IMG/VR virus record: IMGVR_UViG_3300035696_002535
From: a virus
Taxonomy: Duplodnaviria; Heunggongvirae; Uroviricota; Caudoviricetes
Strand: one strand, 5' to 3'
Length of the DNA stretch: 64,000 nt
Shown here: piece by piece, positions 8,024 through 35,314 of the stretch
Layout of the letters: every line of letters begins with the position of its first letter
Numbering within the stretch: the first letter of the stretch is position 1
Position numbers and translations under genes: made by a program
The notes under the pieces: generated by a model
Seen by the model: the letters and a program-made list of their open reading frames with translations, nothing else
What the model was told of the DNA's origin: nothing
The model's database searches: none

Positions 8024-8066
8024 GAAAAATTAGCCCCTAGTTGCCCAGGGGCTAACTAATTTTTAT
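8024..8066 (-). terminator. rho-independent terminator-like hairpin (bidirectional: A-run, 8-bp GC stem, T-run)
   Basis: aaaaat-TAGCCCCtagttgcccaGGGGCTA-actaattttta sits immediately 3' of the nicotinamidase gene. Confidence 0.55.
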
Positions 8067-8893
8067 GACACCTGCAAGAACTTGTCCGTCGTGGTGATCT
8101 TCATCCCCTTGGCTGTCATCTTGTTGATGAAGTCTTCCGCAGCCGCTTTTGCGATAGGGACCGGCGAACTTGCATCCTCAAGGTAGACGAACTTCTTGAC
8201 ATAGTCGTCCCCGAAGTGAGTCGCAATGTCCATCACAGTCGCCCGTACGCAATGGCTGGAAGCCTCCCCAGCGATGTAGATATACTTGGCATCTTTGAGA
8301 TACTGTACCAGTTTCATGTTGGGGCCAGTACCTTCGGCGTCATCGGGATCGAAGACTTCAGCCTTGAATGCGCTGTAATGCTCGGTGAACATATTCGAGC
8401 CCTTGGTCACGAAATCAACTACGGCGAACTGGGCTTCCCATTCCTGGAAAGCTTCGAACAAAACCGGTTCGACTTTGAACCCATTCGATCCGATAAGGCA
8501 GTGCATCGGCCAGATCATGAGAGTATAGTTACCCTGCTTCTTGAGAGTCTGCACGTATTTTTCCGAAATGGCTTGGAATCCCGGATTTGTGGCTCTCCAC
8601 TTGGCATTGGAACCTACGACATCCTCTTCCGGAATAGCAGTATAAGGATCTGGATGTTTTCCGTCCGAATTAATCCACCAGATGGGATGGGCGATGTGGA
8701 GGTATCTGTGCGCATCTTTTGTGCACACGATGCGGTCGATGATGTCTTTGTTCTTCGAGATAGCTTTTGCAAGACGTATCATGTCCTGATCAGCACCTGG
8801 AACAAAGAGACTTCCTGCGGAGTTGCAGAAATCAAACTGAGGGTCGATAGTCAGAAGGATAATCTGATCCTTCGTCTTCGCTGTGTCCGACAT
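8063..8893 (-). CDS. pncA: nicotinamidase / isochorismatase-family cysteine hydrolase (PncA-like)
   Basis: 'LTIDPQFDFCN' (catalytic Asp), 'DAHRYLHIAHP' (D/H metal site) and 'IAGEASSHCVRATV' (catalytic Cys in xxCV context). Confidence 0.6.
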   Translation of the reverse strand: MSDTAKTKDQIILLTIDPQFDFCNSAGSLFVPGADQDMIRLAKAISKNKDIIDRIVCTKDAHRYLHIAHPIWWINSDGKHPDPYTAIPEEDVVGSNAKWRATNPGFQAISEKYVQTLKKQGNYTLMIWPMHCLIGSNGFKVEPVLFEAFQEWEAQFAVVDFVTKGSNMFTEHYSAFKAEVFDPDDAEGTGPNMKLVQYLKDAKYIYIAGEASSHCVRATVMDIATHFGDDYVKKFVYLEDASSPVPIAKAAAEDFINKMTAKGMKITTTDKFLQVS

Positions 8894-9594: not shown

Positions 9595-10578
9595 ATGTGT
9601 GTTACCCTGTTTAAGTACAAACAAAGGAGATATATGAACACTAAAAACATTCCAAAAAAAGATGTACTTGATCTTTATTCCTCTAGTAAGTCTGTTCTCT
9701 ACATAGCCAGCAAATATGGTGTGTCTACCAAACCAATATACAAGATACTAAAGGATAACAATGTTAAATTGAAAACCTATTCTGAGTCTGCTAGAAGATA
9801 TCCTTTAAATGAAAACTATTTTAACAAAATAGACACCCCTGAAAAAGCGTATTTTGTTGGACTCCTTTATGCAGATGGGTACAACAACAGAGCAAGAAAT
9901 TCTGTAATACTAAGTTTAGAAGAGCATGACAAATATTTGTTGGAGAGACTATCTTCTTTCATTTTTATAGGAAAAAGAGAGCTACTGTATATAAAACCAC
10001 CAAAAAGAAAGAAAAAAATCAACGGTAAATATATTAACACTAATCCGGCATATCGTTTGACCATAACTAGTAAAAATGTAAGTTCTGTTTTAAGGCAACA
10101 CGGAATGGATGAGCATAAAACAAAAAATCTTAAATTTCCTAAATGGCTCTCTCCAAAGCTACTTCGACATTTTATAAGGGGGTATTTTGATGGGGACGGA
10201 TACACAGGTATCAACAAAAAAAGAAAAGATGCAGAAGTTAGTATAATAGGTACCGAAAGTTTTATAAAAAACACAATCAAAGTAATAAAAACTAAACTTA
10301 ATATTACCGTTTTAAAGAAAAAGCACATATCCAAGGGTATTCTTTGTTTAAGAATTTGTGGTAACATACAGGTTTTAAAATTTCTTAATTGGATCTATAA
10401 AGATAGTTCTTTATTTCTAACAAGAAAACATGATAAATATAAAGAATTGCTGCAAATCAGATATAGCATAGAAAATAAGCCAAAAAAACTTTGTTCCTTA
10501 TGTAAAAATGAGCACTACGGTAAAGGACTGTGCTTTAGCCACTGGAGAAAAGCCCGTTATCGTGAACTTAAACTTTAA
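9595..10578 (+). CDS. LAGLIDADG homing endonuclease, free-standing, two-motif (single-chain) type
   Basis: Two LAGLIDADG motifs, 'FVGLLYADGY' and 'GYFDGDGY'. It is the only plus-strand gene inside a 40 kb minus-strand block, with a divergent low-complexity flank. Confidence 0.75.
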   Translation: MCVTLFKYKQRRYMNTKNIPKKDVLDLYSSSKSVLYIASKYGVSTKPIYKILKDNNVKLKTYSESARRYPLNENYFNKIDTPEKAYFVGLLYADGYNNRARNSVILSLEEHDKYLLERLSSFIFIGKRELLYIKPPKRKKKINGKYINTNPAYRLTITSKNVSSVLRQHGMDEHKTKNLKFPKWLSPKLLRHFIRGYFDGDGYTGINKKRKDAEVSIIGTESFIKNTIKVIKTKLNITVLKKKHISKGILCLRICGNIQVLKFLNWIYKDSSLFLTRKHDKYKELLQIRYSIENKPKKLCSLCKNEHYGKGLCFSHWRKARYRELKL

Positions 10579-11162
10579 ATAACACCGTCTTCAGCAAACC
10601 TTAAGAACACAAGATAAGCTTTGGCTCCTATTTTATTGTCAGGATTTTCTATAACAATTTTAACTTGTTTTCTATTTAAAAGAAAAATCTGGATGTCTTC
10701 AGATGATTCATTTTTTTCAAGGTTGATAGTACCTTCTGCTTCTACGAAAAACATGTATGTAGATTCATTTGTTAACCCAGCACTACTGAAAACAGGAGAT
10801 CTAGTTTTTCTTAATATTTTTTTTATCTTTAAACCTGTTTCTTCGAAAAGTTCTCTTTTGGCAGTCTCCTCAGGGGATTCCCCATAATCTATTAGTCCTG
10901 CGGCACACCCGTATTCATAGTCTTGAAGGGGGATACGAAACTCTTTGATAACAACAAGTCGTGGATTTGGATGGGGATTCGTGTTGTCTTCTGTATCAGG
11001 ATCATCCCCAGGGACTATCGCCACGATTACAACAGCGTTTTGATTCCCCGGGCGTTCAGCCGATATCCACTCTTTACGTTGCCCAGTCTTGTCTTCATAA
11101 ACGGTGCGCACCAGATTAAGGAAACGGCTTTCAGCTATGTTGTGTTTTTCTCGGATTTTCAT
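10575..11162 (-). CDS. NUDIX hydrolase
   Basis: A perfect Nudix box, 'GLIDYGESPEETAKRELFEETGL' (GX5EX7REUXEEXGU). Confidence 0.8.
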   Translation of the reverse strand: MKIREKHNIAESRFLNLVRTVYEDKTGQRKEWISAERPGNQNAVVIVAIVPGDDPDTEDNTNPHPNPRLVVIKEFRIPLQDYEYGCAAGLIDYGESPEETAKRELFEETGLKIKKILRKTRSPVFSSAGLTNESTYMFFVEAEGTINLEKNESSEDIQIFLLNRKQVKIVIENPDNKIGAKAYLVFLRFAEDGVI

Positions 11163-11441
11163 CTACATCCCCTTTGCGTAATCATATTTGTCATCTGAAC
11201 TGTCGAAAGCCTCACGGTGACCGTCCGCGTGTCCCTCATTATAACCGATGTTTAAGGCATATCGGATCAAAGCCCCGATGTCAGTCTTTTTGATGATCAG
11301 CAAGACCCCATTTTCTTCAGCTCGAGCTTTAATCCAGCTACCATATATTTTAATCCCATGCTTCTTCTGAGCATCCAATAAGATTCTATTTACTCGTCCT
11401 CTTGGCATAGCAATCTCTCCGCTAGTTAAAAAAACTACCAA
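11163..11441 (-). CDS. hypothetical protein
   Basis: 92 aa ORF packed between the NUDIX and macro genes. Confidence 0.4.
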   Translation of the reverse strand: MVVFLTSGEIAMPRGRVNRILLDAQKKHGIKIYGSWIKARAEENGVLLIIKKTDIGALIRYALNIGYNEGHADGHREAFDSSDDKYDYAKGM

Positions 11442-12051
11442 GATCAGAAGTGTCGACTATTGTCGTATCAGCCGTGGAATCAATGTCAGGAGGAATCACA
11501 ACATCTCCTAGATCACTGGAGATATCGACTTTTGATGTATCAGCTGTATCATTCTCGTACTTGGTCGGCCACCGGTCTTTTTGAGATGGAATGGTATAAA
11601 CATATGTATCAACCGTCATAACTTTTTTGATGATATTCTCAATTGTCAACCAATCACCCCCCGCGAGTACACAGCCTATCCTCGGCATGGCCACCGTCCA
11701 CCCATGTTCTAAAGCATGCTTGTATACATTAGTTAAACATTTTTCCACGGCATCATATCGTATTGGAGGAATTTTGCCTCTCCAACGGATCTCGTGCTGG
11801 GCAATCATATTCGCAACCATCACATCTTCTGCAAAAGGCACAAGTTGTATAGCGCCAAGTTCATATCCTCCTTCTGGCCCTTCAAGGGACCATTTCCGAT
11901 ATGCTTTTTCTGGATCTTTATTTTTCTTAGATAGAGCCATAACGAACCCAGCGCCCCACGCTCCGGGTACACAGTCGTTGCAGACGTGCGAGATTATAGC
12001 AGGCTTAACGATTGGTTCTGTTGCATCCCCGATAAGATAATGTAGTTCCAT
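11422..12051 (-). CDS. macro-domain protein (Poa1p/Macro_2-like ADP-ribose / ADP-ribose-1''-phosphate processing)
   Basis: 'IISHVCNDCVPGAWGAGFVMAL' matches the hhvCNc..mGaGiA signature of Poa1p-like macro domains. Confidence 0.5.
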   Translation of the reverse strand: MELHYLIGDATEPIVKPAIISHVCNDCVPGAWGAGFVMALSKKNKDPEKAYRKWSLEGPEGGYELGAIQLVPFAEDVMVANMIAQHEIRWRGKIPPIRYDAVEKCLTNVYKHALEHGWTVAMPRIGCVLAGGDWLTIENIIKKVMTVDTYVYTIPSQKDRWPTKYENDTADTSKVDISSDLGDVVIPPDIDSTADTTIVDTSDLGSFFN

Positions 12052-12844: not shown

Positions 12845-13528
12845 TTATACCTTCGGAGCTGCTCCTGCCTTCAATGAAGCAAAAAGAGCCGAGCCCTTAG
12901 TCTTACCGAGTGCTTCGTCGGCCTGTTGTGCAAGCGATTTGGACGGTTCGGCTTGCTTGACCATTTCCGAGGAAACACGAAGCTGTTCATCGAGTTTCCG
13001 GCGTCTCTCCTTAAACCTCTGGACAGCCGAGCCAGATTTACCTGTATCGACATTGACTAGTGACTTGTTGGCATCTGTCACTGCCTGCTGGGTTTTCATG
13101 ATCTCCAGGTCGTTCTGGCATTCCCGCATATGATCTTCCAATGCGGCTTTAGAATCTTCGAACTGCGTGAGCAGGCCTTCTTGCTGAGTCATGGCACCCT
13201 TCAAGACGTCGAGTTTTGCCTGGAACCCTTCGACTTCCTTGCAAAGCTGTTCGGCCAGTTTATCGGTGGCATCGGTATGCTTGGCAATGAGAGCCTGGGC
13301 CTTATTCGTATCATTGTTGATCTGATCCTGAAGATCTTTCATGTCGTCGGTCAATTGACTCATACGGGCTTTGATATGCCCCAGGTTCTCCATGACCGTT
13401 TGCATATCGTGCTTCATGTCTTCCATGTCGTTTTTTGCGAATTCGACGGGGTCAGAATTTTCGAGACTTTCGGCGGCTTTTCTGTCAGTTACCCGAAAGA
13501 AACCTTTGAGTGCGCCAAGGAGTGCCAT
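12845..13528 (-). CDS. pspA: PspA/IM30 (Vipp1) family protein, bacterial ESCRT-III-like
   Basis: The N-terminus 'ENSDPVEFAKNDMEDMKHDMQTVMENLGHIKA' matches the PspA_IM30 start (EDPekmleqairdmeedl). Long coiled-coil throughout. Confidence 0.7.
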   Translation of the reverse strand: MALLGALKGFFRVTDRKAAESLENSDPVEFAKNDMEDMKHDMQTVMENLGHIKARMSQLTDDMKDLQDQINNDTNKAQALIAKHTDATDKLAEQLCKEVEGFQAKLDVLKGAMTQQEGLLTQFEDSKAALEDHMRECQNDLEIMKTQQAVTDANKSLVNVDTGKSGSAVQRFKERRRKLDEQLRVSSEMVKQAEPSKSLAQQADEALGKTKGSALFASLKAGAAPKV

Positions 13529-14824: not shown

Positions 14825-15574
14825 TCATGCTTTTTCGAAAAAGATCTCGTCTCCCTTGAGGATGATGTTGATTGGGTCGACTCCATATCCGACTACTTTT
14901 CTCGGGATACTAACCCTGCCATCGTACCATACCTTCAAATTGGGATTGAGCTTGCCGGAATGAATTTTGATCTTGGTTGGATCAACCGTCTGTCCTGGTT
15001 TCCATCCAATGGCTTTGGTAATATCGCCTGGGATCTGTATCCTGCGAACATAGCGGCTCTTGCGAACGAGCCTCACACCCGTTCCAGAGATGTTAGGATG
15101 TGTGCCGTCGTCAAGAAGATCAGGCAGAGGAAGTTGCGAGTCGTCTTTTCGGTCTGTATCTGTCGAAACGACACTGGCTGATCCGGCTGTTCCAGGCTTG
15201 GATAATACCGCCGTAGCCGTCGAAGAAGATATCGGTGAGGGAGAAGCTGAAGCTGGACTCAGGGCGCTGAGATCACTAGGGCTAAATGCCCTCTGGTCAC
15301 GATCCAGATAATCGCCTGCATCCTTCCAGTGAGGGCGATATAGCATGGCGACTCTGTTTCCTCCATTGACGTCGATGGGCTCGGAAACATAATCCTGAAG
15401 CATGGAATCTTTGCCTATGTTGGAGCGAAGCCAATCTCGTACATCCCGATTGCGGATATCCATTTTTAAAGTTGTTTTCTTGATTGCGTTTCCGATATCC
15501 ACTGAGGTAAAGAGTTTCTCCGCAGTGACGAATTCCTGCACCGCTTCTCTGATCGTATCGTCCTTAGGGCACAT
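14825..15574 (-). CDS. hypothetical protein (start moved to 'MCPKDD', which is preceded by AGAGGAGGT)
   Basis: A strong SD 9 nt upstream of the internal ATG; the promoter-like motif lies further upstream. Confidence 0.45.
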   Translation of the reverse strand: MCPKDDTIREAVQEFVTAEKLFTSVDIGNAIKKTTLKMDIRNRDVRDWLRSNIGKDSMLQDYVSEPIDVNGGNRVAMLYRPHWKDAGDYLDRDQRAFSPSDLSALSPASASPSPISSSTATAVLSKPGTAGSASVVSTDTDRKDDSQLPLPDLLDDGTHPNISGTGVRLVRKSRYVRRIQIPGDITKAIGWKPGQTVDPTKIKIHSGKLNPNLKVWYDGRVSIPRKVVGYGVDPINIILKGDEIFFEKA

Positions 15575-15619
15575 GGTACCTCCTCTGGTTTTAAAGATTG
15601 CCTGATTTCGTTCTAACAG

Positions 15620-15635
15620 TAATATACTTTTTTGG
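15620..15635 (-). promoter_or_regulatory. conserved promoter-like motif taatatacttttttgg (identical 16-mer at 28775-28790)
   Basis: About 50 nt upstream of the ATG at 15574. On the transcribed strand it reads CCAAAAAAGTATATTA. Confidence 0.4.
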
Positions 15636-15674
15636 AAAATCGAATCCAAAAGAAAAATAAAATTATTTTTAATT

Positions 15675-15743: not shown

Positions 15744-16121
15744 TCATCTACGTCCGTAGTTGCTTCCGCCGCCACCTGCGCCACCATATGGCTTGTTGCC
15801 ACGAGGTTGCTGAGGATGTGCCTCATTGACCTTAAGAGCACGCGGAGGCGAGCCCATTTCTTTTCCATCGAGCTTGAGAGCCTCATCGAGGTTCTCCAAC
15901 TCGATTTCAACGAAACAGAAGCCTTTTGATCTGCCACTGTCACGGTCTGTGATGATATTCACGGTCTTGACCGTTCCAACGCCTGCAAAAAAGTTCCTGA
16001 GATCATCCTCTGTTGCAGCCCAGGGAATGTTCCCCACATACAGTTTCTTTAACACAAAACCCTCCACAGAAAAGTGAAAAATAAACGGCTTTAACACCGC
16101 CCCGTCCAGTTTGGACGACAC
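15744..16121 (-). CDS. RRM-type RNA-binding protein with Gly-rich tail (cyanobacterial Rbp / CIRP-like)
   Basis: RNP2 'LYVGNI', RNP1 'KGFCFVEI', C-terminal 'GGAGGGGSNYGRR'. Confidence 0.8.
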   Translation of the reverse strand: MSSKLDGAVLKPFIFHFSVEGFVLKKLYVGNIPWAATEDDLRNFFAGVGTVKTVNIITDRDSGRSKGFCFVEIELENLDEALKLDGKEMGSPPRALKVNEAHPQQPRGNKPYGGAGGGGSNYGRR

Positions 16122-16177: not shown

Positions 16178-16876
16178 TTATAATTTATTAGCCCTAGCCA
16201 AACTCAACAGTTTTTCTGCATGGTCTTCTCTAAGTTGGTTGAATCCACGCCCAAAATAAGCTTGATGTTTAAGTAAACCTTTAGCAGAATCAGGGTCGTT
16301 AAACCAAGAAAAATCGTTTAAGACAACCCTACATTTAATTTCATTAATTCCTGAAATAAGATATTTGAATTTTTCCCTTGGATTTATATCTAATTTTTTA
16401 TTAGAGTTTTTCCACTCTTCTTCAGTCAGTTCTTTTCCATTCAACCACCACTCTTTAAAATTGTCAGGATAGATGACGGCTGGTCCTTCTGTTCTATGTT
16501 TTCTTCCGTGTATGTACCAGACTCTAGTTCCATTTTTAAGTGTGACAGCTGGTCCGTTTGTTCTATGAAGTATACGGTCTATAGTCCAAAATTCTCCACC
16601 TTTGTTTTTAGTCATTTCTGTTTTCTTTTGACGAATTTCATAGCCGGTTATTTTGTCTATTCCACAAAGAGTAAATATAGTTTTATTTCCGTCAAGAGAT
16701 CCTTCGATCACCGCAACCTGTTTTCCTATAGCATTTTTTAAAACCTGCTCAGGTTTACTGCTGAGCCACAATTCTCTAGGTTTTTTGCTTCGTTCTTTAT
16801 AGTAGTCACTTAAATCATTTCCCATTTTTTTGACCTTGTGATAGCCTACAAAAACAGGTTCTTGATCGCTTTTCAT
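16178..16876 (-). CDS. repeat protein with 'NGPAV..W(Y/W)xNG..HR..GPAV' units (MORN-variant/YwqK-like)
   Basis: Tandem units 'HRTNGPAVTLKNGTRVWYIHGRKHRTEGPAVIYPDNFKEWWLNGKE'. Confidence 0.35.
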   Translation of the reverse strand: MKSDQEPVFVGYHKVKKMGNDLSDYYKERSKKPRELWLSSKPEQVLKNAIGKQVAVIEGSLDGNKTIFTLCGIDKITGYEIRQKKTEMTKNKGGEFWTIDRILHRTNGPAVTLKNGTRVWYIHGRKHRTEGPAVIYPDNFKEWWLNGKELTEEEWKNSNKKLDINPREKFKYLISGINEIKCRVVLNDFSWFNDPDSAKGLLKHQAYFGRGFNQLREDHAEKLLSLARANKL

Positions 16877-16941
16877 TTGAAACCCCCCATTGACTAAGAT
16901 TAATCACGCTTCTACTCAAAATTAACTCAGATTAAATTAAG

Positions 16942-17781
16942 TCAGATAGTCTGATAGCATACTGCTTGTTCTGACTTTTTTCCTACCACAAGATAACCAC
17001 AGAAGCCACTACCTCGAGCTTGCTGGACGGTCTTAACTGAATTTTGCTTTTTATTTTCTTCTGGTTGCTCTTTTAAAGTTACGTTTCTCTCGAACAACTC
17101 TCTGGTCATCTCATTCCAAGTAGGTTGTTCTAATTTAACTTTATTATCCGTTATTGATTTAGCAACATCAAGGCATAGCAGGCTATTAATTTGGAGGTTA
17201 TACTCTGTTATTGGCTGTGTTTTCGTGGTTAGTCCCATTTTTGTTAAGCGATGATGTAGTCTCCATTCAGAATCCTTATATAGATCCTTAACTACACTAG
17301 GCCACTTAATAGTTTCAAGATCCTTGTTTGGGCGGGACTTGACTATATTTCTTGCCTTATTTGGGCGAGACTTAACTATATCTTTTGCTTTCGTGGATAT
17401 GTATTCATTAGTAAACAAAGATTCAACTTGTTTTGGAGATGTTATAAACCATTCATTTCCAAGACTGTCAGGGATATTTTGTCTCATTTCCGTTAAACAA
17501 TTGTGTAGCCACTTTTCTAGCTGAGAAGGGTAGTCTGTGTGTATTATTAAACCTATTATAGGCTGTTCATGGTAGCCCATAGCCAAGCTTTTTGCTCGCA
17601 TTTTAACATCCCCAGATAAACCTATCTTACATTCCCAAATGTCCTCCTCAATATAATGAGTTAATTCACGATTCGTAGGATAATAGTAAACATAGACACA
17701 ACCAGATCCCTCGCCAACTTCTTTTTCAATTTGAACACCCTTTATGCACGACACACTTATAGACTCCTTTTTCAGGTACAC
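16942..17781 (-). CDS. T5orf172/GIY-YIG-like domain protein with internal 11-aa tandem repeat
   Basis: 'GCVYVYYYP...CKIGLSGDVKMRAKSL' resembles the T5orf172 (MUG113) GIY-YIG-like fold. There is a 'KSRPNKARNIV/KSRPNKD' direct repeat. Confidence 0.4.
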   Translation of the reverse strand: MYLKKESISVSCIKGVQIEKEVGEGSGCVYVYYYPTNRELTHYIEEDIWECKIGLSGDVKMRAKSLAMGYHEQPIIGLIIHTDYPSQLEKWLHNCLTEMRQNIPDSLGNEWFITSPKQVESLFTNEYISTKAKDIVKSRPNKARNIVKSRPNKDLETIKWPSVVKDLYKDSEWRLHHRLTKMGLTTKTQPITEYNLQINSLLCLDVAKSITDNKVKLEQPTWNEMTRELFERNVTLKEQPEENKKQNSVKTVQQARGSGFCGYLVVGKKSEQAVCYQTI

Positions 17782-17783
17782 AA

Positions 17784-17798
17784 CAATATACTATTTGG
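17784..17798 (-). promoter_or_regulatory. promoter-like motif caatatactatttgg
   Basis: Immediately upstream of the start at 17781. Confidence 0.35.
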
Positions 17799-17895
17799 TA
17801 TAAAGAAGTTTAACAATTATTTCCATTTATAACCCAAGACAGGAGCGAGCTCAGGAGGGCAAGGACCTATGATATCTGTGAGTTTGTCGTATAGG

Positions 17896-18798
17896 CTATG
17901 AAAGGACCTCAGGAAGTATCTTTAATCTCCAGCCTTTATATTCTTCTGATGATTGTTCTTTTACAATACGTCTAATTATTTTTCTGTCCAGATTGTAATC
18001 TCTTGAAAATTCCCTAAAATTTATAATTTCATGCTCTACGTTATCTTTTATAAAAATGTATTTTTTTGAACCCCGAGCCAAAGACATTTTAATTTTTGTT
18101 GCTTCTGATGGTTTCACTCCTTTTTTAATATTTGACATTTTTTGTCTATACTCTGGTGATTTTACTATTATTAACATTTTAGCTTGACATGCTTCTGATC
18201 TTTTTATACCTTTATGAAGTACAGATTGTTTTTCACGAAACTCTTTGCTTTTCAGAACAGAAATGCGTTTGCTGTCATCCCTGTTTCTTGCCGCTATTTT
18301 TAATTTTTCTATCAAATCCGGAGGAAGTTTTGTACCTGTTCGGCATCTCCTTGTGTTTTCTCCTATTTCTTTTGCTCTCAATAAAGAAGCTTTTGACATT
18401 TTTTCTATTGTTTCTTTAGTGTGCTTTCTCCCACGCATAGGTGCAGAAGCATCTAAACTTATATTATAATAACCCGTTGTACCTACAAGAGAATCTAAAA
18501 GAATCTGCTCTTTTCTTTTAATTAAAGAAACCTGTTCAATGATTTCTGTAACTTGAAATACAAAGTTGTCTTTTCCGTATTTATTATAAGAAGCTTGTAA
18601 ATGAGGATTAACATGCTTTTTCCTGTTTAGTCCTTCTATGTGCCCTTTAAATCTAGAAATAAAACTGTCTGCTGTTGAGCCTACATAGAATTTATTGTTA
18701 ACTATATTTACTATCTTATATGTTCCTTTTTTGAGAAGCTCTGAATTTTTGGGCAAACTATTTTGTCTACTTTCAATTTCTTTAAAAGTGTAAACCAT
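17896..18798 (-). CDS. GIY-YIG homing endonuclease with NUMOD3 DNA-binding repeats (I-TevI-like, free-standing)
   Basis: 'KFYVGSTADSFISRFKGH...NKYGKDNF' (GIY-YIG). Four repeats resemble NUMOD3: 'GRKHTKETIEKMSKA', 'GTKLPPDLIEKLKIA', 'HKGIKRSEACQAKM', 'KKGVKPSEATKIKMSLA'. Confidence 0.75.
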   Translation of the reverse strand: MVYTFKEIESRQNSLPKNSELLKKGTYKIVNIVNNKFYVGSTADSFISRFKGHIEGLNRKKHVNPHLQASYNKYGKDNFVFQVTEIIEQVSLIKRKEQILLDSLVGTTGYYNISLDASAPMRGRKHTKETIEKMSKASLLRAKEIGENTRRCRTGTKLPPDLIEKLKIAARNRDDSKRISVLKSKEFREKQSVLHKGIKRSEACQAKMLIIVKSPEYRQKMSNIKKGVKPSEATKIKMSLARGSKKYIFIKDNVEHEIINFREFSRDYNLDRKIIRRIVKEQSSEEYKGWRLKILPEVLS

Positions 18799-18972
18799 AA
18801 AATTATCACCATAATTAAATATCCGAGGCGGGGTAGTTATTCCCTACAAGCTACAAACGCACGGAGGATTGTAGTTTGATTCTCGGATATAATGTTTCTT
18901 AAAAATTATCCGTGCAAAACGCGAGAAGAGAGTAACTAACTCTCCTATAATGGTAGGAATATGAAGAGAGTA

Positions 18973-20397
18973 TTATGGGCGTAATTCAACAATATATTTT
19001 AAAGTTTGATTCTCTAAATATGGAGTAATTAATTCGTCGTTGTACAAGGACTGGCCAGCTTTTGCCCAAATGCTGTCGTATCCTCTCGGAGTTCCACTAG
19101 GAAGAGAGTCATATGTTGTGTAATACTTTCCTAAAGCCACATCCGCTATAAATAAAAAGATATTATCGTATTTACTTCTTTTTCCACCCCATGAACCCAG
19201 GCTATATCGACCGGATTTTGTACTTGACAAACCGTAATACGCACCGGTCCCGAACATCCTCCCGCACACATGTGGTGCATTAACAGGAGGTATAACTAAT
19301 CCTGTTTTTAAAATCGAGAGACAATTACTCGAGCTACTTCCATGGAAGCACTCTTTAATGTTTCCTTTTTGTTTTCCCCTTGTTTCATAACGTTCTCGTT
19401 CTTTAGGTATCCTTATTTTAAAAAATCTGACTGGATTGTAGTTCCACACCTCATCATGTCTATGATTGCTGGCTTTTGTAGATATAATAAAATCTCTTAA
19501 TCTATCTGCTTCTGCTCTATCCTTCAAAATTTCTATGTCCGTTCCAAGAGCATTCATTTGCTGTTTAGTATTACCGGCCATAGCCGACCCCATCTGGACT
19601 CCAGTCGATAGCTGTGTTAACAAATCGTACTCATCCTGAAGTTTTTGGGCAGTATAAATCATATTTTCTGTAGATATCTTACGGCTGAATGGTTTGGGAA
19701 TAAGACTAAAGAAAAGGCTGTTGAGTTGTTGTACTTCTCTGTTTTCTGGGTCTACCTCTCCTTTTGTCCCCATAAGTCTGTTAAGTTCATCCAAAGGTTT
19801 ACGAGCTTTATCCACATGGGCACTTGTAACCGGACCCAAGGGAGTACTGTAACCATTTGTTGTATACTGAATTGAGGACAAACTAGTCACATTATGCACA
19901 TTCTCCCCAATAAGTTGTTGTAAGAGTTTTCCGATAGTAGGATCATACGAAGAAGTGTCTATAGCAGTTTTCACAGAGATCGTTTTTTTTGTTTCAGCCT
20001 TTCCTCGTATATTTTCCGATCCAATAGAAGGAGCAATCACCTCTACATTGACATAGGCTTCTCTTACTTTCTGCCCAGGATTGTCAGGATCTGGAACAGA
20101 TTTTCCGGACAGTTTCTTTTTGTGAATAGTATCAAACTCTTTTTTCGCAGTGTTAAAATCAAAACAAGGAGAACCTTCGTAGATTTCTCTGACTTCGTAT
20201 ATATTAGAAATCCCAAGTCGACCATAATGAGTAAAAATACGATATTGCCCTTGAGGATTTTTTTGGATCTCAATTAAATAGTATTTATTGTGATTCGAAA
20301 CTACATTAGCCTGATGCATTACATGGTATTCTACAGTCTCGTTAAAACCATCGTTCGAATTATCAGACGCTTTTCGTACTTCCCAGCCGTTTGCCAT
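18973..20397 (-). CDS. poly/mono(ADP-ribose) polymerase with N-terminal WGR domain
   Basis: WGR 'WEVRK...KYYLIEIQKNPQGQYRIFTHYGRLG'. PARP catalytic 'HGSSSSNCLSILKTGL', 'GTGAYYGLSSTKSGRYS', 'FLFIADVALG', 'YNDELI', so the H-Y-E triad is present. Confidence 0.8.
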   Translation of the reverse strand: MANGWEVRKASDNSNDGFNETVEYHVMHQANVVSNHNKYYLIEIQKNPQGQYRIFTHYGRLGISNIYEVREIYEGSPCFDFNTAKKEFDTIHKKKLSGKSVPDPDNPGQKVREAYVNVEVIAPSIGSENIRGKAETKKTISVKTAIDTSSYDPTIGKLLQQLIGENVHNVTSLSSIQYTTNGYSTPLGPVTSAHVDKARKPLDELNRLMGTKGEVDPENREVQQLNSLFFSLIPKPFSRKISTENMIYTAQKLQDEYDLLTQLSTGVQMGSAMAGNTKQQMNALGTDIEILKDRAEADRLRDFIISTKASNHRHDEVWNYNPVRFFKIRIPKERERYETRGKQKGNIKECFHGSSSSNCLSILKTGLVIPPVNAPHVCGRMFGTGAYYGLSSTKSGRYSLGSWGGKRSKYDNIFLFIADVALGKYYTTYDSLPSGTPRGYDSIWAKAGQSLYNDELITPYLENQTLKYIVELRP

Positions 20398-20422
20398 AAG
20401 AAATCTCCTCGTTTAACTGAAA

Positions 20423-20629
20423 TTAATTTTGATCAGCACGAGTTCCCGAATAGTTGTGTTCATACAGTTCTGATTCGTCAAAATTTGGACGAACTCTTTT
20501 AGGCTTACCACCCCTTGGGTGATTATTGTCACATTTGCAAAATATCATCCGTTTTTTGCATGCTGTACAAAAAGAAAGATCTATAGCTGCATAGTTAAAG
20601 GATTTTGTTTCCATTATTTGTTGTACCAC
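20423..20629 (-). CDS. small Cys-rich (Zn-ribbon-like) protein
   Basis: 'CTACKKRMIFCKCDNNH'. Confidence 0.3.
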   Translation of the reverse strand: MVQQIMETKSFNYAAIDLSFCTACKKRMIFCKCDNNHPRGGKPKRVRPNFDESELYEHNYSGTRADQN

Positions 20630-21150
20630 TCCCAGCAGTGTCCAAAAAGAAAATCTCCGTTATCCAACTCAATCAAGACATTCACGAAATCTCCAGCACC
20701 ATCATTGGGTAGTGTACCAAAAGTGTATCCGTGCCCAAGAAAAGCCATTTGGATGGTGTTAGCTTCCGGAAGAACTCCCCCGCTCATTTTATTAGTCCAT
20801 TTCGTATCAAAAAGATAGTCATTATAATTTACACTTTCACTTCCGTTGTCTTCTTCAAATTTTTTACGGTACTGATCAACACCGTTTTTCACAACAAGAA
20901 CCACAGGTATAAAATGATAATAGATATTATCCGAAAAAGGGCACTTATACCTAAAAGCCTCTTTAAGCTCTTTGGAGTCTATCCCCAGTCTTTCAATAGC
21001 GTGCCAGGGGTTATTACCGAAGGTACCTATCCACAAGTAATTCTCAAGTTTCTCTTTGTTTCCTACTTGGCGTACAAGGTACTTACCGCCTGAGAGAATT
21101 TCTCCTATTTCAGGCTTATAGGGGGTTTTTTGTTTGATGGGTTTAATCAT
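20614..21150 (-). CDS. hypothetical protein
   Basis: 178 aa ORF, co-directional with 4-nt overlaps. Confidence 0.4.
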   Translation of the reverse strand: MIKPIKQKTPYKPEIGEILSGGKYLVRQVGNKEKLENYLWIGTFGNNPWHAIERLGIDSKELKEAFRYKCPFSDNIYYHFIPVVLVVKNGVDQYRKKFEEDNGSESVNYNDYLFDTKWTNKMSGGVLPEANTIQMAFLGHGYTFGTLPNDGAGDFVNVLIELDNGDFLFGHCWEWYNK

Positions 21151-21530
21151 TTTGGTTCTTCAGTATTTGGAGAATCGGCAGGATAGACCCCATTCTGGAT
21201 TAGGGACATATCTACACCAACCAGTTTTGCTGCGACATTGAAGTCATGCCCTTTAACCTGGACTCGGTTATACCATCCGGAGATGTGAACTAGATGACCC
21301 GATGATGCATCTAACCAATAAATGCCGTCTGATGATGATTCGTTTGTGATACTCGTGTTGTAAAGTTTCCAGGCACACTTTGGCTTCATGTTCATGTCAT
21401 ACTGAACAACAATCCAATCGCTGCCAAAGGATTCAGCCGAAAATACCGAACAACCTCTCTGCACCCCCGCACATCCGAGAGCGAGTGTCAAAGCCCATAC
21501 CGACAGAATAGTTTTAAATCTCATGGTCAA
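21147..21530 (-). CDS. secreted/lipoprotein-like hypothetical
   Basis: Signal 'MTMRFKTILSVWALTLALGCAG'. Confidence 0.45.
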   Translation of the reverse strand: MTMRFKTILSVWALTLALGCAGVQRGCSVFSAESFGSDWIVVQYDMNMKPKCAWKLYNTSITNESSSDGIYWLDASSGHLVHISGWYNRVQVKGHDFNVAAKLVGVDMSLIQNGVYPADSPNTEEPK

Positions 21531-21787
21531 TCCTTTACTATATGGTTTTTTTCTAAGTCCTCGAGAACTTCTTTGAAGGGCTCCCCAACTTCCTCACAGG
21601 GACCCTTAAGTATTACTGTCTCTTCCCCATATTCGCCTTCATAGCGATATATGACCACATCATCAGGACCAAAAGCATCGCTGTCAAGGGCACTTGTCAT
21701 AATAACAGGAAAATCCGTCAGCTTAGGCTTCTTTTTGTTGCCCTTGAAATCGTAAACGAGATCATCCGGTGAAAGTATAACGATCAT
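21527..21787 (-). CDS. hypothetical protein
   Basis: 86 aa ORF. Confidence 0.35.
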   Translation of the reverse strand: MIVILSPDDLVYDFKGNKKKPKLTDFPVIMTSALDSDAFGPDDVVIYRYEGEYGEETVILKGPCEEVGEPFKEVLEDLEKNHIVKD

Positions 21788-21811
21788 TAAAATCCCCCAT
21801 TCAAGATAAAC

Positions 21812-22225
21812 TTAATGTGTCGGATCGTCTTCATCTTCTTTGATAAGCTCACGCAACTGCTCACCGTTAAGATTCCACCAAAGCTCCTCTTTACCTTCTT
21901 CATGTGCTTCGACTAGGGTTACAACCATATCATATATCTCTGCATGTGCGTATATCAGGCTTTTGTTATCTTCCCACCATTTTTCATCTTTTTTTATTGC
22001 ATGTGCATCAACAAGACCTCTAAGCAACTCGATAATGATCTTCATTTCCCAAGTATGAATTGCTCTTTCCAAGATATCTACGCACTCATTCATGGAAGGT
22101 TGCATCTGCATACCAGCCCACTGAGTTGTTTCGCGGAATTTTCTAATGACCGGGACCCAATAGTTTACGAATTCGTCGCTGAATTTTGACTTTTTTTCTT
22201 CTAGGTTCTGAGAAGTTATTTGCAT
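21812..22225 (-). CDS. hypothetical protein
   Basis: 137 aa ORF. Confidence 0.4.
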   Translation of the reverse strand: MQITSQNLEEKKSKFSDEFVNYWVPVIRKFRETTQWAGMQMQPSMNECVDILERAIHTWEMKIIIELLRGLVDAHAIKKDEKWWEDNKSLIYAHAEIYDMVVTLVEAHEEGKEELWWNLNGEQLRELIKEDEDDPTH

Positions 22226-22229
22226 AATT

Positions 22230-22520
22230 CTATCTCCTGATCCAAAGAGTGTCTCCTACTTTGTAAGAGCACTCTTTTTGATAGATTTTTATTCTATTGG
22301 TGTATATAACATATCTAGTTTTATTCTGGACTATTTTATTGACTACCAGATATGAATCGTTTGGTAGAAGTATTACAAGTCCAGAATAAAGTAAAAATAA
22401 TCCAGAAACAATAGTACATACAATTGCTTCTTCTTTGAGACTTCCTGTTAATCTACTAATACATATAATACCAACAACAACAAGAATAACTCCCAAAATA
22501 AAAAATACCCAGAAATCCAT
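22230..22520 (-). CDS. small membrane protein (2 TM)
   Basis: Two hydrophobic helices. Confidence 0.4.
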   Translation of the reverse strand: MDFWVFFILGVILVVVGIICISRLTGSLKEEAIVCTIVSGLFLLYSGLVILLPNDSYLVVNKIVQNKTRYVIYTNRIKIYQKECSYKVGDTLWIRR

Positions 22521-22531
22521 CTTTTCTCCCT

Positions 22532-23587
22532 TTAATCCTTGACTCCAGCTACGTAAATAGGGTCTCTTTGTTTAAGAAACAGCCTTCCAAATCCAATAAC
22601 ATACTGTTCTATTTCAGGTTTAATAACTATCCCTTCTCGTATTTTATTTACCAGCATACTCATCCCATGCGAAGCTTCCTGAAGAGTCCTACCAGCCATC
22701 CACTGTTCCAGGGTGACACCGATGGATATGATAGGGACGCATTTTTCTTTCAGTTCCACATAAGACAGAAGATTGACGAAATCCGAATAGTTGAAGGCTT
22801 TTCGGTTTACCTCTATTTCGAAAATCCTGGTAGTGTGCTTGCTGAAATTGTAATAATTCTTCTGGATCCCTGGTCCCAAGGCTTCCGAGCGTATGGTTAC
22901 CGAGCACCCTTTGAACTTGTCTCTCTGCAATTTCAGTACAGCATCTATGATCCCTTCATCACGAGCTACTTTCCAGAATGTGTGCTCATCGTGGTCGATA
23001 AGATTTTCAATAGCGTATCTATGCTGACACACAGAAAGTTTGTTCTCTGTGTCGACGGAGGTGGCCATGTTAGACCCCTCTAACTTCTCTGAGATAACGA
23101 CAGGCTTATGCAGGAGTTCTTCCACAATGTGGGGGTATCTATCACATCCCTCTATGTCGTGCTCGTAGACAGCCTTAGGGAGGCGAACAAGCTTCCCTGT
23201 TTGGGTCATAATCTCTGGAGGCTCGTATTTAGTGATCCCGAGAGCCGCAGTAAGGTCGGCAGGAAGTGTGTCTACTTTGAGGTATTCCTTGATGCTTTTC
23301 GCAGATGCTACATATCCCTGAGAGACCGCTCCGCGAAGGACGCAAGTTTTAATTCGGTTCTTGGCTTTTCCAGACATGAATGTTGCTATATTCTGCTGGG
23401 CTATAAGTTCCTGAGGCAAGAGGCTATCTTCTGGAAAATACACGACATCATCACCAGCCTGATACATTCCCTTCTGTACCACGAATTGAAAAGTCATCCC
23501 CTCTACCTGACCGAGCTCGAGTCTGTCTGCACTGGAGTGAGGATAAATTTTTGAGATTTTTTTGGCTTCTACAGCAAAAGTGCTCAT
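22532..23587 (-). CDS. ATP-dependent RNA ligase (Rnl2/DRB0094-like) with N-terminal tRNA-binding OB (Myf/EMAP-like) domain
   Basis: The N-terminus 'AKKISKIYPHSSADRLELGQVEG' matches the tRNA-binding-domain signature (hPnADkL..v.vG). 'EKLEGSNMA' resembles Rnl2 motif I 'EKIHGTN' (KxxG[ST]N). Confidence 0.5.
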   Translation of the reverse strand: MSTFAVEAKKISKIYPHSSADRLELGQVEGMTFQFVVQKGMYQAGDDVVYFPEDSLLPQELIAQQNIATFMSGKAKNRIKTCVLRGAVSQGYVASAKSIKEYLKVDTLPADLTAALGITKYEPPEIMTQTGKLVRLPKAVYEHDIEGCDRYPHIVEELLHKPVVISEKLEGSNMATSVDTENKLSVCQHRYAIENLIDHDEHTFWKVARDEGIIDAVLKLQRDKFKGCSVTIRSEALGPGIQKNYYNFSKHTTRIFEIEVNRKAFNYSDFVNLLSYVELKEKCVPIISIGVTLEQWMAGRTLQEASHGMSMLVNKIREGIVIKPEIEQYVIGFGRLFLKQRDPIYVAGVKD

Positions 23588-33103: not shown

Positions 33104-33428
33104 TTCGTTCCCGAAGCCAATCTAAAACCATATTGTGCACAGATTCCTTTTCACTGAACCCGCCCTTGGGAACAACTATAGAACCATAGCCAAACTCGTT
33201 GTTCTCTACTCGCTGCAGGATTTTAACAAGGCTGTAGTTACCATCTTCAATCAAGGTCTGCCAGAGATTCTCCGTAGATATTATTTTTTTCTCTTGCTCT
33301 TGTTCTACAGCAGTCGCTTTGAAAAATAGGCCACTCTCTCGAAGATAATTCATGAAGCTGGTGAAATGCAATTTAAAAGCATTAGGACGTATGTCAGAGC
33401 TTGTACGGATTATGATCTGTTTTTTCAT
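33018..33428 (-). CDS. hypothetical protein, translationally coupled to nadE
   Basis: Its ATG overlaps the nadE stop (ATGA-type overlap). Confidence 0.4.
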   Translation of the reverse strand: MKKQIIIRTSSDIRPNAFKLHFTSFMNYLRESGLFFKATAVEQEQEKKIISTENLWQTLIEDGNYSLVKILQRVENNEFGYGSIVVPKGGFSEKESVHNMVLDWLRERNVNVIDVENEISCLEKSLHREMVYNGRD

Positions 33429-35314
33429 TTAGCCTCCGAATTAAGAGCCTTATTCTTCAGCTCATGATATTTTTTAGTGAAATAGGCTTCTCCTATGTAA
33501 TCACGAAAATCCCACCCGAAGACTCGACGGGTTAAACCCAGAATAGGAGGAGCCTGGACTCTTTTAACGACACTCATCCCTTTGAACAGTTTATACCATC
33601 GTTCCAGATCATCCGTGAATGTTTTTACAGTAGGAAATAGTTTGTATACATCTTCAGATGTCCCAAGTTTTTCATTGATGGTTTTATCCAAATACCACTG
33701 AAGGTTCTCTTCTGGAGTTACTCTGTACCACCACTGTTGCCAGGATTCAAAAAGTTTATCATGGTACCAGTAAATGAGGGGATCACCTTTACCTTCATCT
33801 ACGTTTTGTTCCGAAGAAAGTTCGGCAGAGGGGGTAACTGTGAAAGCTTCTTCCGGTATATAGTTTTTGATTTCATTTAACTCTCGCCCTATCTCATATA
33901 CTTGGTGTTTCCACAAATCACCAAGGGGAGCAAAAAAGCCACTGTTGTCGCCCCCTAGGGTACAGTATCCCACGCAACTTTCAGTTTTATTCGAATTACA
34001 AGTAAAAACTCCACCCCAGGCCGAGGCCAATGCAGCAAGGATCCTAGAGGATCTGTCACGAGCTTGGACGTTCTCCAAGTCAAACGAGGTTAGAGCCAGT
34101 GCCTTATAAGAACCTGTAGAAGAGTTCAGTCTAACTTTAACACCTTTTTCCTGCTGATAGACAGTAAGTCCATCAATATACTGTTTAGTTAGGTCAACCG
34201 AACTCTCTATAGGTATAATAGTATAATAGCATCCAATGTTTTTAGCTAGTTCCTCAGCAATGTTTCTAGTTGTTTTTGAGTTCCACCTAGTTGGCATATT
34301 CACCAACAGGAGATTCTCAGGTCCTACAACCTGGGCAGCAAGCGAGGCAACCACCGAAGAGTCTATTCCACCGGACACCCCAACAACCACCTTATTCGTT
34401 TTGCAAAGCTCTAGGAATTTTCTGAAACCATATTTCATAGCTGCTACGGTTTCTTTACTGCCTGTTGGAATAGAATAGCTTTTAGAGACAGGAAAAAGGT
34501 TGTTATTTTTGTATTCTACATAATAAAGGCCTTCTTCAAACATAGGAGCTTGAAAAACGGGCTCGCCATAGGAGTTATAGGCTACAGAAGAGCCATCAAA
34601 GGTATACACGCTTTTTCCTACGTTTTGTAAACCTGTAGCATTTAAATATATAAGAGGAGTTTTTTTGGCTTTAGCATGGCCCTGTCCGAATACTCTATCT
34701 CTGGCTTTGTTTTTTTCATAAGTATAGGGAGAGCAAGAACAATTAATTATAAGTTGGGCTCCTCTTTTAACAAACTCTTCAACTGGGCAAACAGGGTAGT
34801 CTTTACCTTTAGTCTCACACCAAAGATCCTCGCACACTGTAAAAGCAATCTCAGTCCCTTGAATAGTGTGAGGAGTAAAATAATCAGCACTATACAATTC
34901 CATGGAAGACGTAAAATGTCTTGGTTCATCAAATTCTCTATAGTTGGGAAGAAGGGCTTTGATGTAATAAGGATGCATTACTGTATGGTGTAGGTTGGGT
35001 CCTACCCAATTAATAACATTAAAAAGTTTAGGTCTTCCGTCTTTGTGTATCCCTTTACCTTTTTTTATATTACCATAAACAACTATGATTTCCTTGGAGG
35101 CCTCTTCAATATCCCTGTTATAACCTTCGCAATCTTCAATAAAAGAGAGTTCCTCCCACTGATCCCCAATAAGATATCCAGGTATGAATAGCTCTGGGGC
35201 AATGATCATATCGGCTTTAGCTTCTATAGCTTTGGGTATATATTCCAATAGCTTGGCACAATTTAAGTCAGGTCTTCCGGGGACACTCTCAAGTTGAGCA
35301 AGAGCAATTTTCAT
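33425..35314 (-). CDS. nadE: glutamine-dependent NAD+ synthetase (N-terminal nitrilase/CN-hydrolase domain + NAD synthetase domain)
   Basis: 'MKIALAQL' CN-hydrolase start and a PP-loop 'VVGVSGGIDSSVVASLA'. At 629 aa it is typical of two-domain NadE. Confidence 0.85.
   Translation of the reverse strand: MKIALAQLESVPGRPDLNCAKLLEYIPKAIEAKADMIIAPELFIPGYLIGDQWEELSFIEDCEGYNRDIEEASKEIIVVYGNIKKGKGIHKDGRPKLFNVINWVGPNLHHTVMHPYYIKALLPNYREFDEPRHFTSSMELYSADYFTPHTIQGTEIAFTVCEDLWCETKGKDYPVCPVEEFVKRGAQLIINCSCSPYTYEKNKARDRVFGQGHAKAKKTPLIYLNATGLQNVGKSVYTFDGSSVAYNSYGEPVFQAPMFEEGLYYVEYKNNNLFPVSKSYSIPTGSKETVAAMKYGFRKFLELCKTNKVVVGVSGGIDSSVVASLAAQVVGPENLLLVNMPTRWNSKTTRNIAEELAKNIGCYYTIIPIESSVDLTKQYIDGLTVYQQEKGVKVRLNSSTGSYKALALTSFDLENVQARDRSSRILAALASAWGGVFTCNSNKTESCVGYCTLGGDNSGFFAPLGDLWKHQVYEIGRELNEIKNYIPEEAFTVTPSAELSSEQNVDEGKGDPLIYWYHDKLFESWQQWWYRVTPEENLQWYLDKTINEKLGTSEDVYKLFPTVKTFTDDLERWYKLFKGMSVVKRVQAPPILGLTRRVFGWDFRDYIGEAYFTKKYHELKNKALNSEAK

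Follow-up and report, generated by a model that had tools for sequence, protein, structure and literature searches.

What does a poly(ADP-ribose) polymerase (PARP) do on the DNA of a virus? The gene that raises this question lies at 18973..20397 on the minus strand of IMG/VR record IMGVR_UViG_3300035696_002535, a stretch of 64,000 nucleotides that is called the window below. In eukaryotes, signalling by PARPs at broken DNA is a defining feature of repair, but the prokaryotic and viral relatives of these enzymes are almost unstudied. A sequence-only reading of the window had described a WGR-containing PARP with an intact His-Tyr-Glu (H-Y-E) catalytic triad and had joined it to a GIY-YIG homing endonuclease and to macro and NUDIX erasers in a complete write/erase circuit. 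The analysis reported here upholds the enzyme, takes the circuit apart and adds a clade-wide neighbour that had been overlooked, the open reading frame (ORF) 14825..15574, called the partner. On balance, the gene probably encodes a catalytically competent transferase of the PARP1/2/3 type with a minimal set of WGR, helical (HD) and ADP-ribosyltransferase (ART) domains, which belongs to a clade of huge phages, would be activated by DNA breaks and would act together with the partner.

The PARP gene and its parts are:

18973..20397, minus strand: PARP gene, 474 amino acids, WGR-HD-ART (ORF listing, Pfam, PHROG and structural model)
20405..20410, minus strand: Shine-Dalgarno sequence GAGGAG, with the ATG of the PARP gene 7 nt downstream (read from the sequence)
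20059..20385, minus strand: WGR domain, about residues 5-113 (Pfam, alignment with PARP2 and PARP3, beta-rich fold in the model)
20011..20022, minus strand: motif G126-S127-E128-N129 in the linker between WGR and HD (conservation in 120 homologues)
19480..19941, minus strand: helical (PARP regulatory, HD) domain, about residues 153-306 (Pfam PARP_reg, helices in the model)
18976..19470, minus strand: ART catalytic domain, about residues 310-474, with H352, G353, S354, Y387, K394, S395, Y398 and E455

The same 474-residue product is called by public gene callers (P0001) and is annotated by JGI as 'poly [ADP-ribose] polymerase'. Judged against the curated gathering cut-offs of Pfam-A, it contains a WGR domain (PF05406) at residues 26-64 (28.2 bits, cut-off 22), a PARP_reg domain (PF02877) at residues 153-278 (39.6 bits, cut-off 26.8) and a PARP catalytic domain (PF00644) at residues 310-446 (67.7 bits, cut-off 26.7). 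The two profiles by which the sequence-only reading had proposed to check itself, PF00644 and PF05406, thus both score above their cut-offs. The helical domain had escaped that reading, and the full architecture is WGR-HD-ART. PHROG 23333 ('polymerase') matches the protein end to end with an E value of 1e-34, and no NCBIfam family was found for it.

The WGR assignment holds, since the Pfam match is above the cut-off and the segment aligns to the WGR domains of PARP2 and PARP3. The signature itself reads Y58-G59-R60, a tyrosine taking the place of the tryptophan, and these three residues are kept in 119 of the 120 homologues compared. Behind the WGR domain, the linker carries the motif GS(E/V)N, in which G, S and N are present in all 120 homologues and E in 102 of them; no counterpart of it was seen in the alignments with PARP1 and PARP2. 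The helical domain consists of six helices in the model, at residues 153-173, 192-209, 220-232, 250-274, 277-284 and 294-306.

All of the active-site residues named in the sequence-only reading are in place: 'HGS' is H352-G353-S354, the first tyrosine of 'GAYYG' is Y387 and the glutamate of 'YNDELI' is E455. In phmmer comparisons with PDB sequences, 'cfHGSsssn' of the phage protein aligns with 'lwHGSrttn' of human PARP1, and 'GtGaYYglsstKSgrY' with 'GkGiYFadmvsKSanY'. The aligned PARP1 residues are H862, Y896, K903, S904 and Y907 in the standard numbering. The match to human PARP1 has an E value of 4e-19 with the single sequence and of 1.9e-36 with the family profile. The pairwise alignment ends before the third residue of the triad, and a 36-sequence family alignment (A1) was therefore built and its profile searched against the PDB. 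The C-terminal family segment 'kgrsLyndelivykleqatlkylvelk' aligns without gaps to the PARP1 segment containing 'YNEYIVY', so that E455, and not D454, is the catalytic glutamate. Replacement of that glutamate had been named as an observation that would speak against the enzyme; it has not been replaced, E455 sitting on the catalytic glutamate of PARP1. D454 was also considered as the catalytic acid of an 'H-Y-D' site and was rejected, because this position varies (D/H/N/S/E/P) while E455 is invariant and aligned to the PARP1 glutamate. Among the 120 homologues, which are 46-100% identical to the window protein, H352 is kept in all, and Y387, K394, Y398 and E455 are each kept in 119, the sole exception being a gap. 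The profile alignment also shows that about 28-30 residues of PARP1, between 'GKHSVK' and the strand with the catalytic glutamate, have no counterpart in the whole clade. Their absence may matter for the type of product, chains or single ADP-ribose units.

The structure predicted by AlphaFold2 from A1 has a mean pLDDT of 87.3 and a pTM of 0.83. Values below 50 are confined to residues 136-148, shortly after the linker motif G126-N129. The top Foldseek matches in the PDB are chains of human PARP1 comprising WGR, HD and ART on a DNA double-strand break (E = 2e-27, TM 0.58-0.66), followed by PARP2 on a bridged break (E = 6e-26). These alignments cover about 490-510 columns, corresponding to the whole phage protein, and PARP1 catalytic domains are matched with E values of about 1e-20. 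By the E values of the family profile, PARP1 comes first (1.9e-36), then PARP2 (2.8e-33, full length), PARP3 (1.4e-21), PARP4 (5e-19) and tankyrase (6e-11), and the protein is therefore clade-1-like.

At least 225 homologues of the PARP ORF were found, all metagenomic. Viral contigs of IMG/VR, 52-543 kb in size, carry nine relatives with 35-55% identity, and JGI contigs with homologues reach 470 kb. Examples of IMG/VR contigs with the clade in the range of 210-543 kb are UViG_3300029288_006769 and UViG_3300024239_000011. Among the cellular genomes scanned (185,579 species), a close relative occurs on one short contig of a metagenome-assembled genome (MAG) only, the remaining matches being PARPs of Myxococcaceae (MAG) with 24-25% identity. 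The window itself carries phage-type genes: PHROG matches, a protein with sigma region 4, and GIY-YIG, T5orf172, LAGLIDADG and HNH endonucleases. No structural genes were seen in it, no tRNA was found in it by ARAGORN, and 17000..23000 was not matched by megablast in any of 50,697 phage records, so that the phage itself is absent from that collection. Even so, the indirect lines of evidence agree: the PARP gene sits on phage-type DNA, and its clade is carried by huge (jumbo-scale) phages.

Two homologues bear archaeal labels at NCBI, P0109/L006 as a 'Candidatus Nanoarchaeia' and P0076/L014 as a 'Candidatus Altiarchaeales' MAG protein. The locus L006 is IMGVR_UViG_3300029288_006769, which IMG/VR places among the viruses; it measures 424,144 bp, and its PARP is 49% identical to that of the window. 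An archaeal origin was rejected, because the Nanoarchaeia-labelled contig of P0109 is also exactly 424,144 bp long. The archaeal-labelled PARPs probably are mis-binned contigs of huge phages, and such contigs could falsely suggest that archaea have PARPs of this kind.

The surroundings of the gene were compared by searching all of the roughly 95 ORFs of the window against 12 distinct PARP-centred loci, each extended by 10 kb on either side. The partner is the only one of these ORFs that is kept near the PARP across the clade:

14825..15574, minus strand: partner gene, 249 amino acids if translation starts at M26 (ATG) within the longer ORF 14825..15649, no Pfam domain

The ATG that gives 14825..15574 is most probably the true start within 14825..15649. 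In each of the 11 loci that can be tested, the partner lies near the PARP, on its strand and downstream of it, with PARP identity going down to 35%; the twelfth locus, L014, could not be tested, as its contig stops about 630 bp past the PARP. The partner directly abuts the PARP in about four loci (L006, L007/8 and L010). The gap is about 0.1 kb in L013, 0.6-2.3 kb in L009, L011, L004, L019, L018 and L012, 6.3 kb in L003 and 3.4 kb in the window. Altogether 43 homologues of the partner were found, none with a Pfam domain, and many of them are on contigs equal in size to the PARP-bearing ones. No NCBIfam family was found for the partner, and its profile gave only spurious matches to cysteine desulfurase (E about 0.06) among PDB sequences.

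In the alignment of the partner family (A2), a conserved N-terminal domain ('FTSVD..N.IK...RN..V..WLR') is followed by a variable, disordered linker (residues 110-163 in the window protein) rich in Ser, Ala, Pro and Asp and by a C-terminal domain of two similar halves, 'R[IL].IPg.i.kalGw.PGq' and 'DgRvSIPR...' (in shorter form, RIxIP...G..PG and GRvSIPR). In the model the N-terminal domain is a three-helix bundle with a beta-hairpin wing, which is a winged-helix fold, and the C-terminal part is a small beta domain. The C-terminal domain probably is a tandem SpoVT/AbrB-like unit, though on weak evidence. PF04014 (MazE_antitoxin) matches three of 21 members weakly, the best E value being 0.0014. 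The hhalign scores are also weak, with E = 0.0017 and 16% probability for the second half against AbrB and E = 0.017 for the first half against MazE. The AbrB and MazE reference sequences used in these comparisons are taken to be correct. In two distant loci the ORF is short (L011, 12152-12484, 110 residues; L012, 13619-14074, 151 residues), and here the N-terminal domain may be the essential part, or the copies may be split or shortened. The partner was considered as a bacterial-type poly(ADP-ribose) glycohydrolase (PARG) or macrodomain as well. This was rejected, since profiles of neither family match and the model shows a winged helix with a small beta domain.

In the window, the partner and the PARP are separated by an RRM gene and a block of three further genes:

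16178..18798, minus strand: insertion block between PARP and partner (Pfam; absence from relatives)
17896..18798, minus strand: GIY-YIG + NUMOD3 homing endonuclease (Pfam, 34.3 bits for GIY-YIG and 28.8 bits for NUMOD3)
16942..17781, minus strand: T5orf172/MUG113 gene (Pfam)
16178..16876, minus strand: ORF within the insertion block, without counterpart in related loci
15744..16121, minus strand: RRM-domain protein just upstream of the partner (Pfam RRM_1, 8e-16)

In the closest relatives, L018 (PARP 81% identical) and L019 (73%), the PARP is followed by two or three small, unrelated ORFs and then by RRM and partner. The RRM gene precedes the partner in these two relatives only. The three genes of the block have no counterpart in the 12 related loci, L018 and L019 included, and recur only in the 100%-identical contigs L001 and L002. 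Because they are absent from all non-identical relatives, they are regarded as window-specific insertions and not as partners of the PARP. The GIY-YIG gene shows the profile of a free-standing homing endonuclease, namely a catalytic domain, a NUMOD module and sporadic presence. It and the T5orf172 gene are selfish insertions in a variable spot, as is usual for homing endonucleases. The sequence-only reading was right in that a GIY-YIG gene is present on the same strand as the PARP, but the functional tie between the two falls away with the absence of the gene from the non-identical loci. The spot between the PARP and the RRM and partner genes holds other cargo in the close relatives, an MgtC-like gene in L019 and three small ORFs in L018. 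Within 27 kb of the window there are four genes of the homing-endonuclease type, belonging to four families. The two outside the block are:

9595-10578, plus strand: LAGLIDADG homing-endonuclease-type gene
35331-36620, minus strand: HNH homing-endonuclease-type gene

The candidate erasers belong to a group of genes connected with NAD+ and ADP-ribose:

11422..12051, minus strand: ALC1-like (SCO6735/BT1257-class) macrodomain protein (PDB homology)
10575..11162, minus strand: NUDIX hydrolase (Pfam NUDIX, 48 bits)
8063..8893, minus strand: nicotinamidase-like (isochorismatase-fold) protein (NCBIfam, PDB)
33425..35314, minus strand: glutamine-dependent NAD+ synthetase, NadE (Pfam, PHROG, NCBIfam)
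12053-12613, minus strand: SLOG-fold protein (Pfam)

Residues 1-150 of the macro protein match BT1257 (2afc/2fg1) with 2e-37 and 5e3b with 8e-32 in phmmer; the latter entry, which the PDB table names only 'Macrodomain protein', is presumably SCO6735. The homology to SCO6735 and BT1257 is strong over the whole macrodomain, the window protein having about 60 additional residues at its C terminus. The Pfam Macro score of 16.1 bits is below the cut-off of 22, and no NCBIfam family was found. The class removes glutamate-linked mono-ADP-ribose from proteins (PMC5087735) and reverses the thymidine-ADP-ribosylation of DNA by DarT (PMC9411070), and its published activities do not include the cleavage of poly(ADP-ribose) (PAR) chains (PMC5087735, PMC9411070). 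The window protein is thus a candidate hydrolase of mono-ADP-ribose or DNA-linked ADP-ribose, loosely linked to the PARP. DarTG is a defence against phages (cited in PMC9503650), and since the class reverses the DarT modification, the protein is at least as likely to serve in counter-defence, independently of the PARP, as to be an eraser.

The families nearest to the NUDIX ORF in NCBIfam are NudE (1e-10) and ADP-ribose diphosphatase (2e-8), both below cut-off. The nicotinamidase-like ORF matches the NCBIfam nicotinamidase/pyrazinamidase family with 8e-13, below cut-off, and yeast nicotinamidase Pnc1 (2h0r) with 2.5e-6, the CV.AT stretch being aligned; it could recycle nicotinamide, a by-product of the PARP. 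For NadE, Pfam gives NAD_synthase with 123 bits together with CN_hydrolase, PHROG 36784 matches with 1.6e-59, and NCBIfam NAD+ synthase scores 300 bits, below the equivalog cut-off of 479 bits; as predicted from these matches, it would incidentally supply the NAD+ on which the PARP acts.

The macro and NUDIX ORFs share the strand of the PARP at a distance of 7-9 kb and are real, as the sequence-only reading had it, but the macro class acts on mono-ADP-ribose or DNA and not on PAR chains. Within 10 kb of the PARP, macro genes occur in three of the 12 loci, NUDIX genes in two and nicotinamidase-like genes in four. In a Pfam scan of roughly 66 window ORFs, matches to PARG or ARH families were absent, and no PARG or ARH3-type glycohydrolase is among the called genes of the related loci. 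The claim of a complete write/erase circuit is not sustained, with neither PARG nor ARH in the scanned ORFs and with macro and NUDIX beside so few of the PARPs. The macro, NUDIX, nicotinamidase-like and NadE genes look like a looser set for NAD+/ADP-ribose housekeeping or counter-defence, not like a dedicated eraser module; macro and NUDIX fit a general counter-defence set at least as well as dedicated erasers. Together with the SLOG-fold protein, the set resembles a network around NAD+ and ADP-ribose that has been reported from jumbo phages (PMC7824862). It may serve NAD+ salvage or counter-defence and would only incidentally supply the substrate and recycle the by-products of the PARP.

Domain architecture, conservation of the active site, fold, phage setting and linkage of the two genes are shown, whereas activation by DNA breaks, the making of chains and the role of the partner are inferred. 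How the PARP might work can be sketched by analogy with PARP1-3 and the Herpetosiphon PARP. The WGR domain would bind DNA breaks, and this binding would relieve the autoinhibition by the helical domain. The H-Y-E site would then use NAD+ to modify the enzyme itself and proteins bound to DNA in its vicinity with ADP-ribose, probably in the form of chains. The product of 14825..15574, a predicted DNA-binding protein with a long disordered linker, would be a functional partner of the enzyme, most likely as a substrate, or as a DNA-targeting or regulatory subunit. Activity in vitro is on record for the WGR-PARPs of Herpetosiphon and Clostridioides difficile, and that of the Herpetosiphon enzyme depends on DNA (PMC8120803). 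A bolder idea, put forward only tentatively, is that the PARP and the winged-helix/AbrB-like protein form an undescribed two-gene, DNA-break-responsive switch in huge phages, in which ADP-ribosylation of the linker would alter DNA binding by the partner. Breaks in phage or host DNA, arising for example from restriction, CRISPR cleavage or degradation of the host chromosome, would be sensed by the PARP. Phage transcription or DNA metabolism would then be re-programmed, and the pair would be a counterpart, in viruses of prokaryotes, to PARP-chromatin signalling.

Several observations weigh against a break-activated, chain-forming PARP with a functional partner. The signature tryptophan of WGR is a tyrosine throughout the family, and the WGR domain alone matches the WGR domains of PARP3 and PARP2 modestly, with E values of 1e-3 (PARP3) to 8e-3. 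The H-Y-E triad is necessary but not sufficient for chains: human PARP4 is named a mono-ADP-ribosyltransferase in the PDB, and both PARP3 and PARP4 are mono-transferases despite having this triad. The lack of about 28-30 residues before the glutamate strand could change the binding of the acceptor. The linkage of the PARP and the partner could partly reflect shared phage ancestry and not function, the AbrB-like assignment of the partner's C-terminal domain rests on weak scores, and the partner is cut down to its winged-helix domain in two loci. It is specific to this PARP clade, being absent beside the PARPs of the cultured phages XacN1, Klebsiella 05F01 and Cellulophaga phi4:1 and beside those of Myxococcaceae too. 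A literature search found no biochemistry on any phage PARP.

The shortened loop before the glutamate strand keeps alive the view that the enzyme is a mono-ADP-ribosyltransferase like PARP3 or PARP4, placing single units on a few targets, from which the ALC1-like macro protein could remove them fully. PARP4 is indeed among the chains that align through to the C terminus, the window ORFs scanned contain neither PARG nor ARH, and the sole candidate ADP-ribose hydrolase of the window is of the class that removes mono-ADP-ribose (PMC5087735). A mono-transferase is nevertheless considered unlikely: the profile is far closer to PARP1 and PARP2 than to PARP3 and PARP4, and K394 and Y398, aligned with 'SKSANY' of PARP1, are conserved. 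Tankyrases, whose loop is comparably short, do make chains, and a PARG could lie beyond the 64-kb window. Alternatively, the substrate might be DNA itself. PARP1-3 are reported to ADP-ribosylate terminal phosphates at DNA breaks in vitro, and a phage enzyme of the minimal PARP2/PARP3-like WGR-HD-ART form might in this way cap phage ends against host nucleases or block repair of the degraded host chromosome. Genes for a non-specific DNA/RNA endonuclease, an Ogg glycosylase and an RNA ligase are present in the window too, and the co-resident macro class removes ADP-ribose from DNA, but the ADP-ribose that it removes is thymidine-linked and not phosphate-linked (PMC9411070). The long disordered linker of the conserved neighbour would suit a protein substrate, and modification of DNA ends appears improbable.

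The circuit of the sequence-only reading, with PARP, GIY-YIG, macro and NUDIX as one write/erase system triggered by nuclease-made breaks, is very improbable as a whole. It draws on the location of all four genes on the same strand within 10 kb, and PARP, macro and NUDIX are indeed syntenic in the two closest relatives, with macro near the PARP in one distant relative. However, the GIY-YIG gene is missing from the related loci save the identical contigs, which largely refutes its part, and within 10 kb macro is missing from nine of the 12 loci and NUDIX from ten. Moreover, according to published work, PAR chains are not cleaved by enzymes of the macro class (PMC5087735), which has an independent and well-supported role in reversing DarT (PMC9411070; DarTG cited in PMC9503650). 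That the gene is a decaying or functionless horizontal acquisition is hardly credible. Nothing but the patchy occurrence of PARPs among cultured phages speaks for decay, and it is already refuted by the pattern of conservation, with at least 225 homologues, conservation over the full length and catalytic residues that are nearly invariant down to 46% identity; the ORF is also intact and has a good ribosome-binding site.

The favoured reading, a break-activated PARP of the PARP1/2/3 type, can be set against the known enzymes. Like the core of human PARP2, PARP3 and PARP1, the phage protein has the order WGR-helical-ART, the H-Y-E triad and the lysine and second tyrosine of 'SKSANY', at about 20-24% identity. 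It lacks the N-terminal extension, zinc fingers and BRCT domain of the human proteins and differs from them in the tyrosine of WGR, in having about 28-30 residues fewer and in the GS(E/V)N linker motif. The PARPs of Herpetosiphon aurantiacus and C. difficile CD160 likewise have a WGR(-PARP_reg)-PARP architecture with a conserved catalytic glutamate, and are active in vitro (PMC8120803, PMC5966428). These bacterial PARPs have been reported with PAR glycohydrolases of their own (PMC8120803), unlike the PARP of the window, where no PARG was found in the scanned ORFs. The architecture, called eukaryote-like in the sequence-only reading, is aptly described by that word, but it was already known in bacteria and phages (PMC4245714, PMC8120803, PMC7824862).

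Phage PARPs are already known from surveys of 2005-2022. Homologues were reported in Aeromonas phage Aeh1 and Cellulophaga phi4:1 (PMC4245714), a survey of jumbo phages lists BBA65562.1 of XacN1 and suggests that ADP-ribose polymers are added to host proteins (PMC7824862), and 'PART (PARP)' is among the most frequent viral ART families (PMC9503650). Annotated examples, several of them on jumbo genomes, are those of Xanthomonas XacN1 (BBA65562.1), Xoo-sp13, Stenotrophomonas CM1/RAS14, Klebsiella 05F01/FBKp34 and Cellulophaga phi4:1/phi17:2, grouped in PHROG 23333. They are 24-28% identical to the window PARP, which is a divergent member with at most 28% identity to annotated ones. What lies downstream of them is a von Willebrand factor A (vWA) protein, a radical SAM protein, or a hypothetical protein and a DNA ligase; in XacN1 the vWA protein (L020, 7279-7929) directly follows the PARP. 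A weak match to VWA_2 (E = 0.004) is seen for the window ORF 6702-7445, which is shared by close relatives.

The terms 'WGR' and 'AbrB' are both absent from the 2022 survey, and the clade-wide pair of PARP and partner is possibly a new two-gene module. This gene pair, together with the correction of the nuclease and eraser reading, is what the present analysis adds. Being compact (474 residues), with an intact active site and a single obligate neighbour, the clade offers a tractable minimal system. It opens the questions of what a PARP does in phage infection and of how a WGR-HD-ART enzyme is regulated without the accessory domains of eukaryotes.

Among the other genes of the window are:

673-2385, minus strand: weak protein-kinase-like ORF
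3479-4366, minus strand: PP2C phosphatase
4363-4905, minus strand: Ogg-type 8-oxoguanine DNA glycosylase
12845-13528, minus strand: PspA/IM30 homologue
22532-23587, minus strand: RNA ligase with PHA02142 OB domain
25125-26876, minus strand: 583-residue protein with sigma-70 region 4
29417-30931, minus strand: SPFH/Band-7 protein
37892-38551, minus strand: non-specific DNA/RNA endonuclease

A PP2C gene is near the PARP in L004 and L019 as well. The strand opposite to the PARP carries, at 40785-62381 (plus strand), a block of about 20 genes for glycan and nucleotide-sugar biosynthesis. It includes GT17, several GT2, GT10 and DXD glycosyltransferases, radical SAM proteins, three NAD-dependent epimerase/dehydratases and an aminotransferase (PHROG 3139, 1.6e-104).

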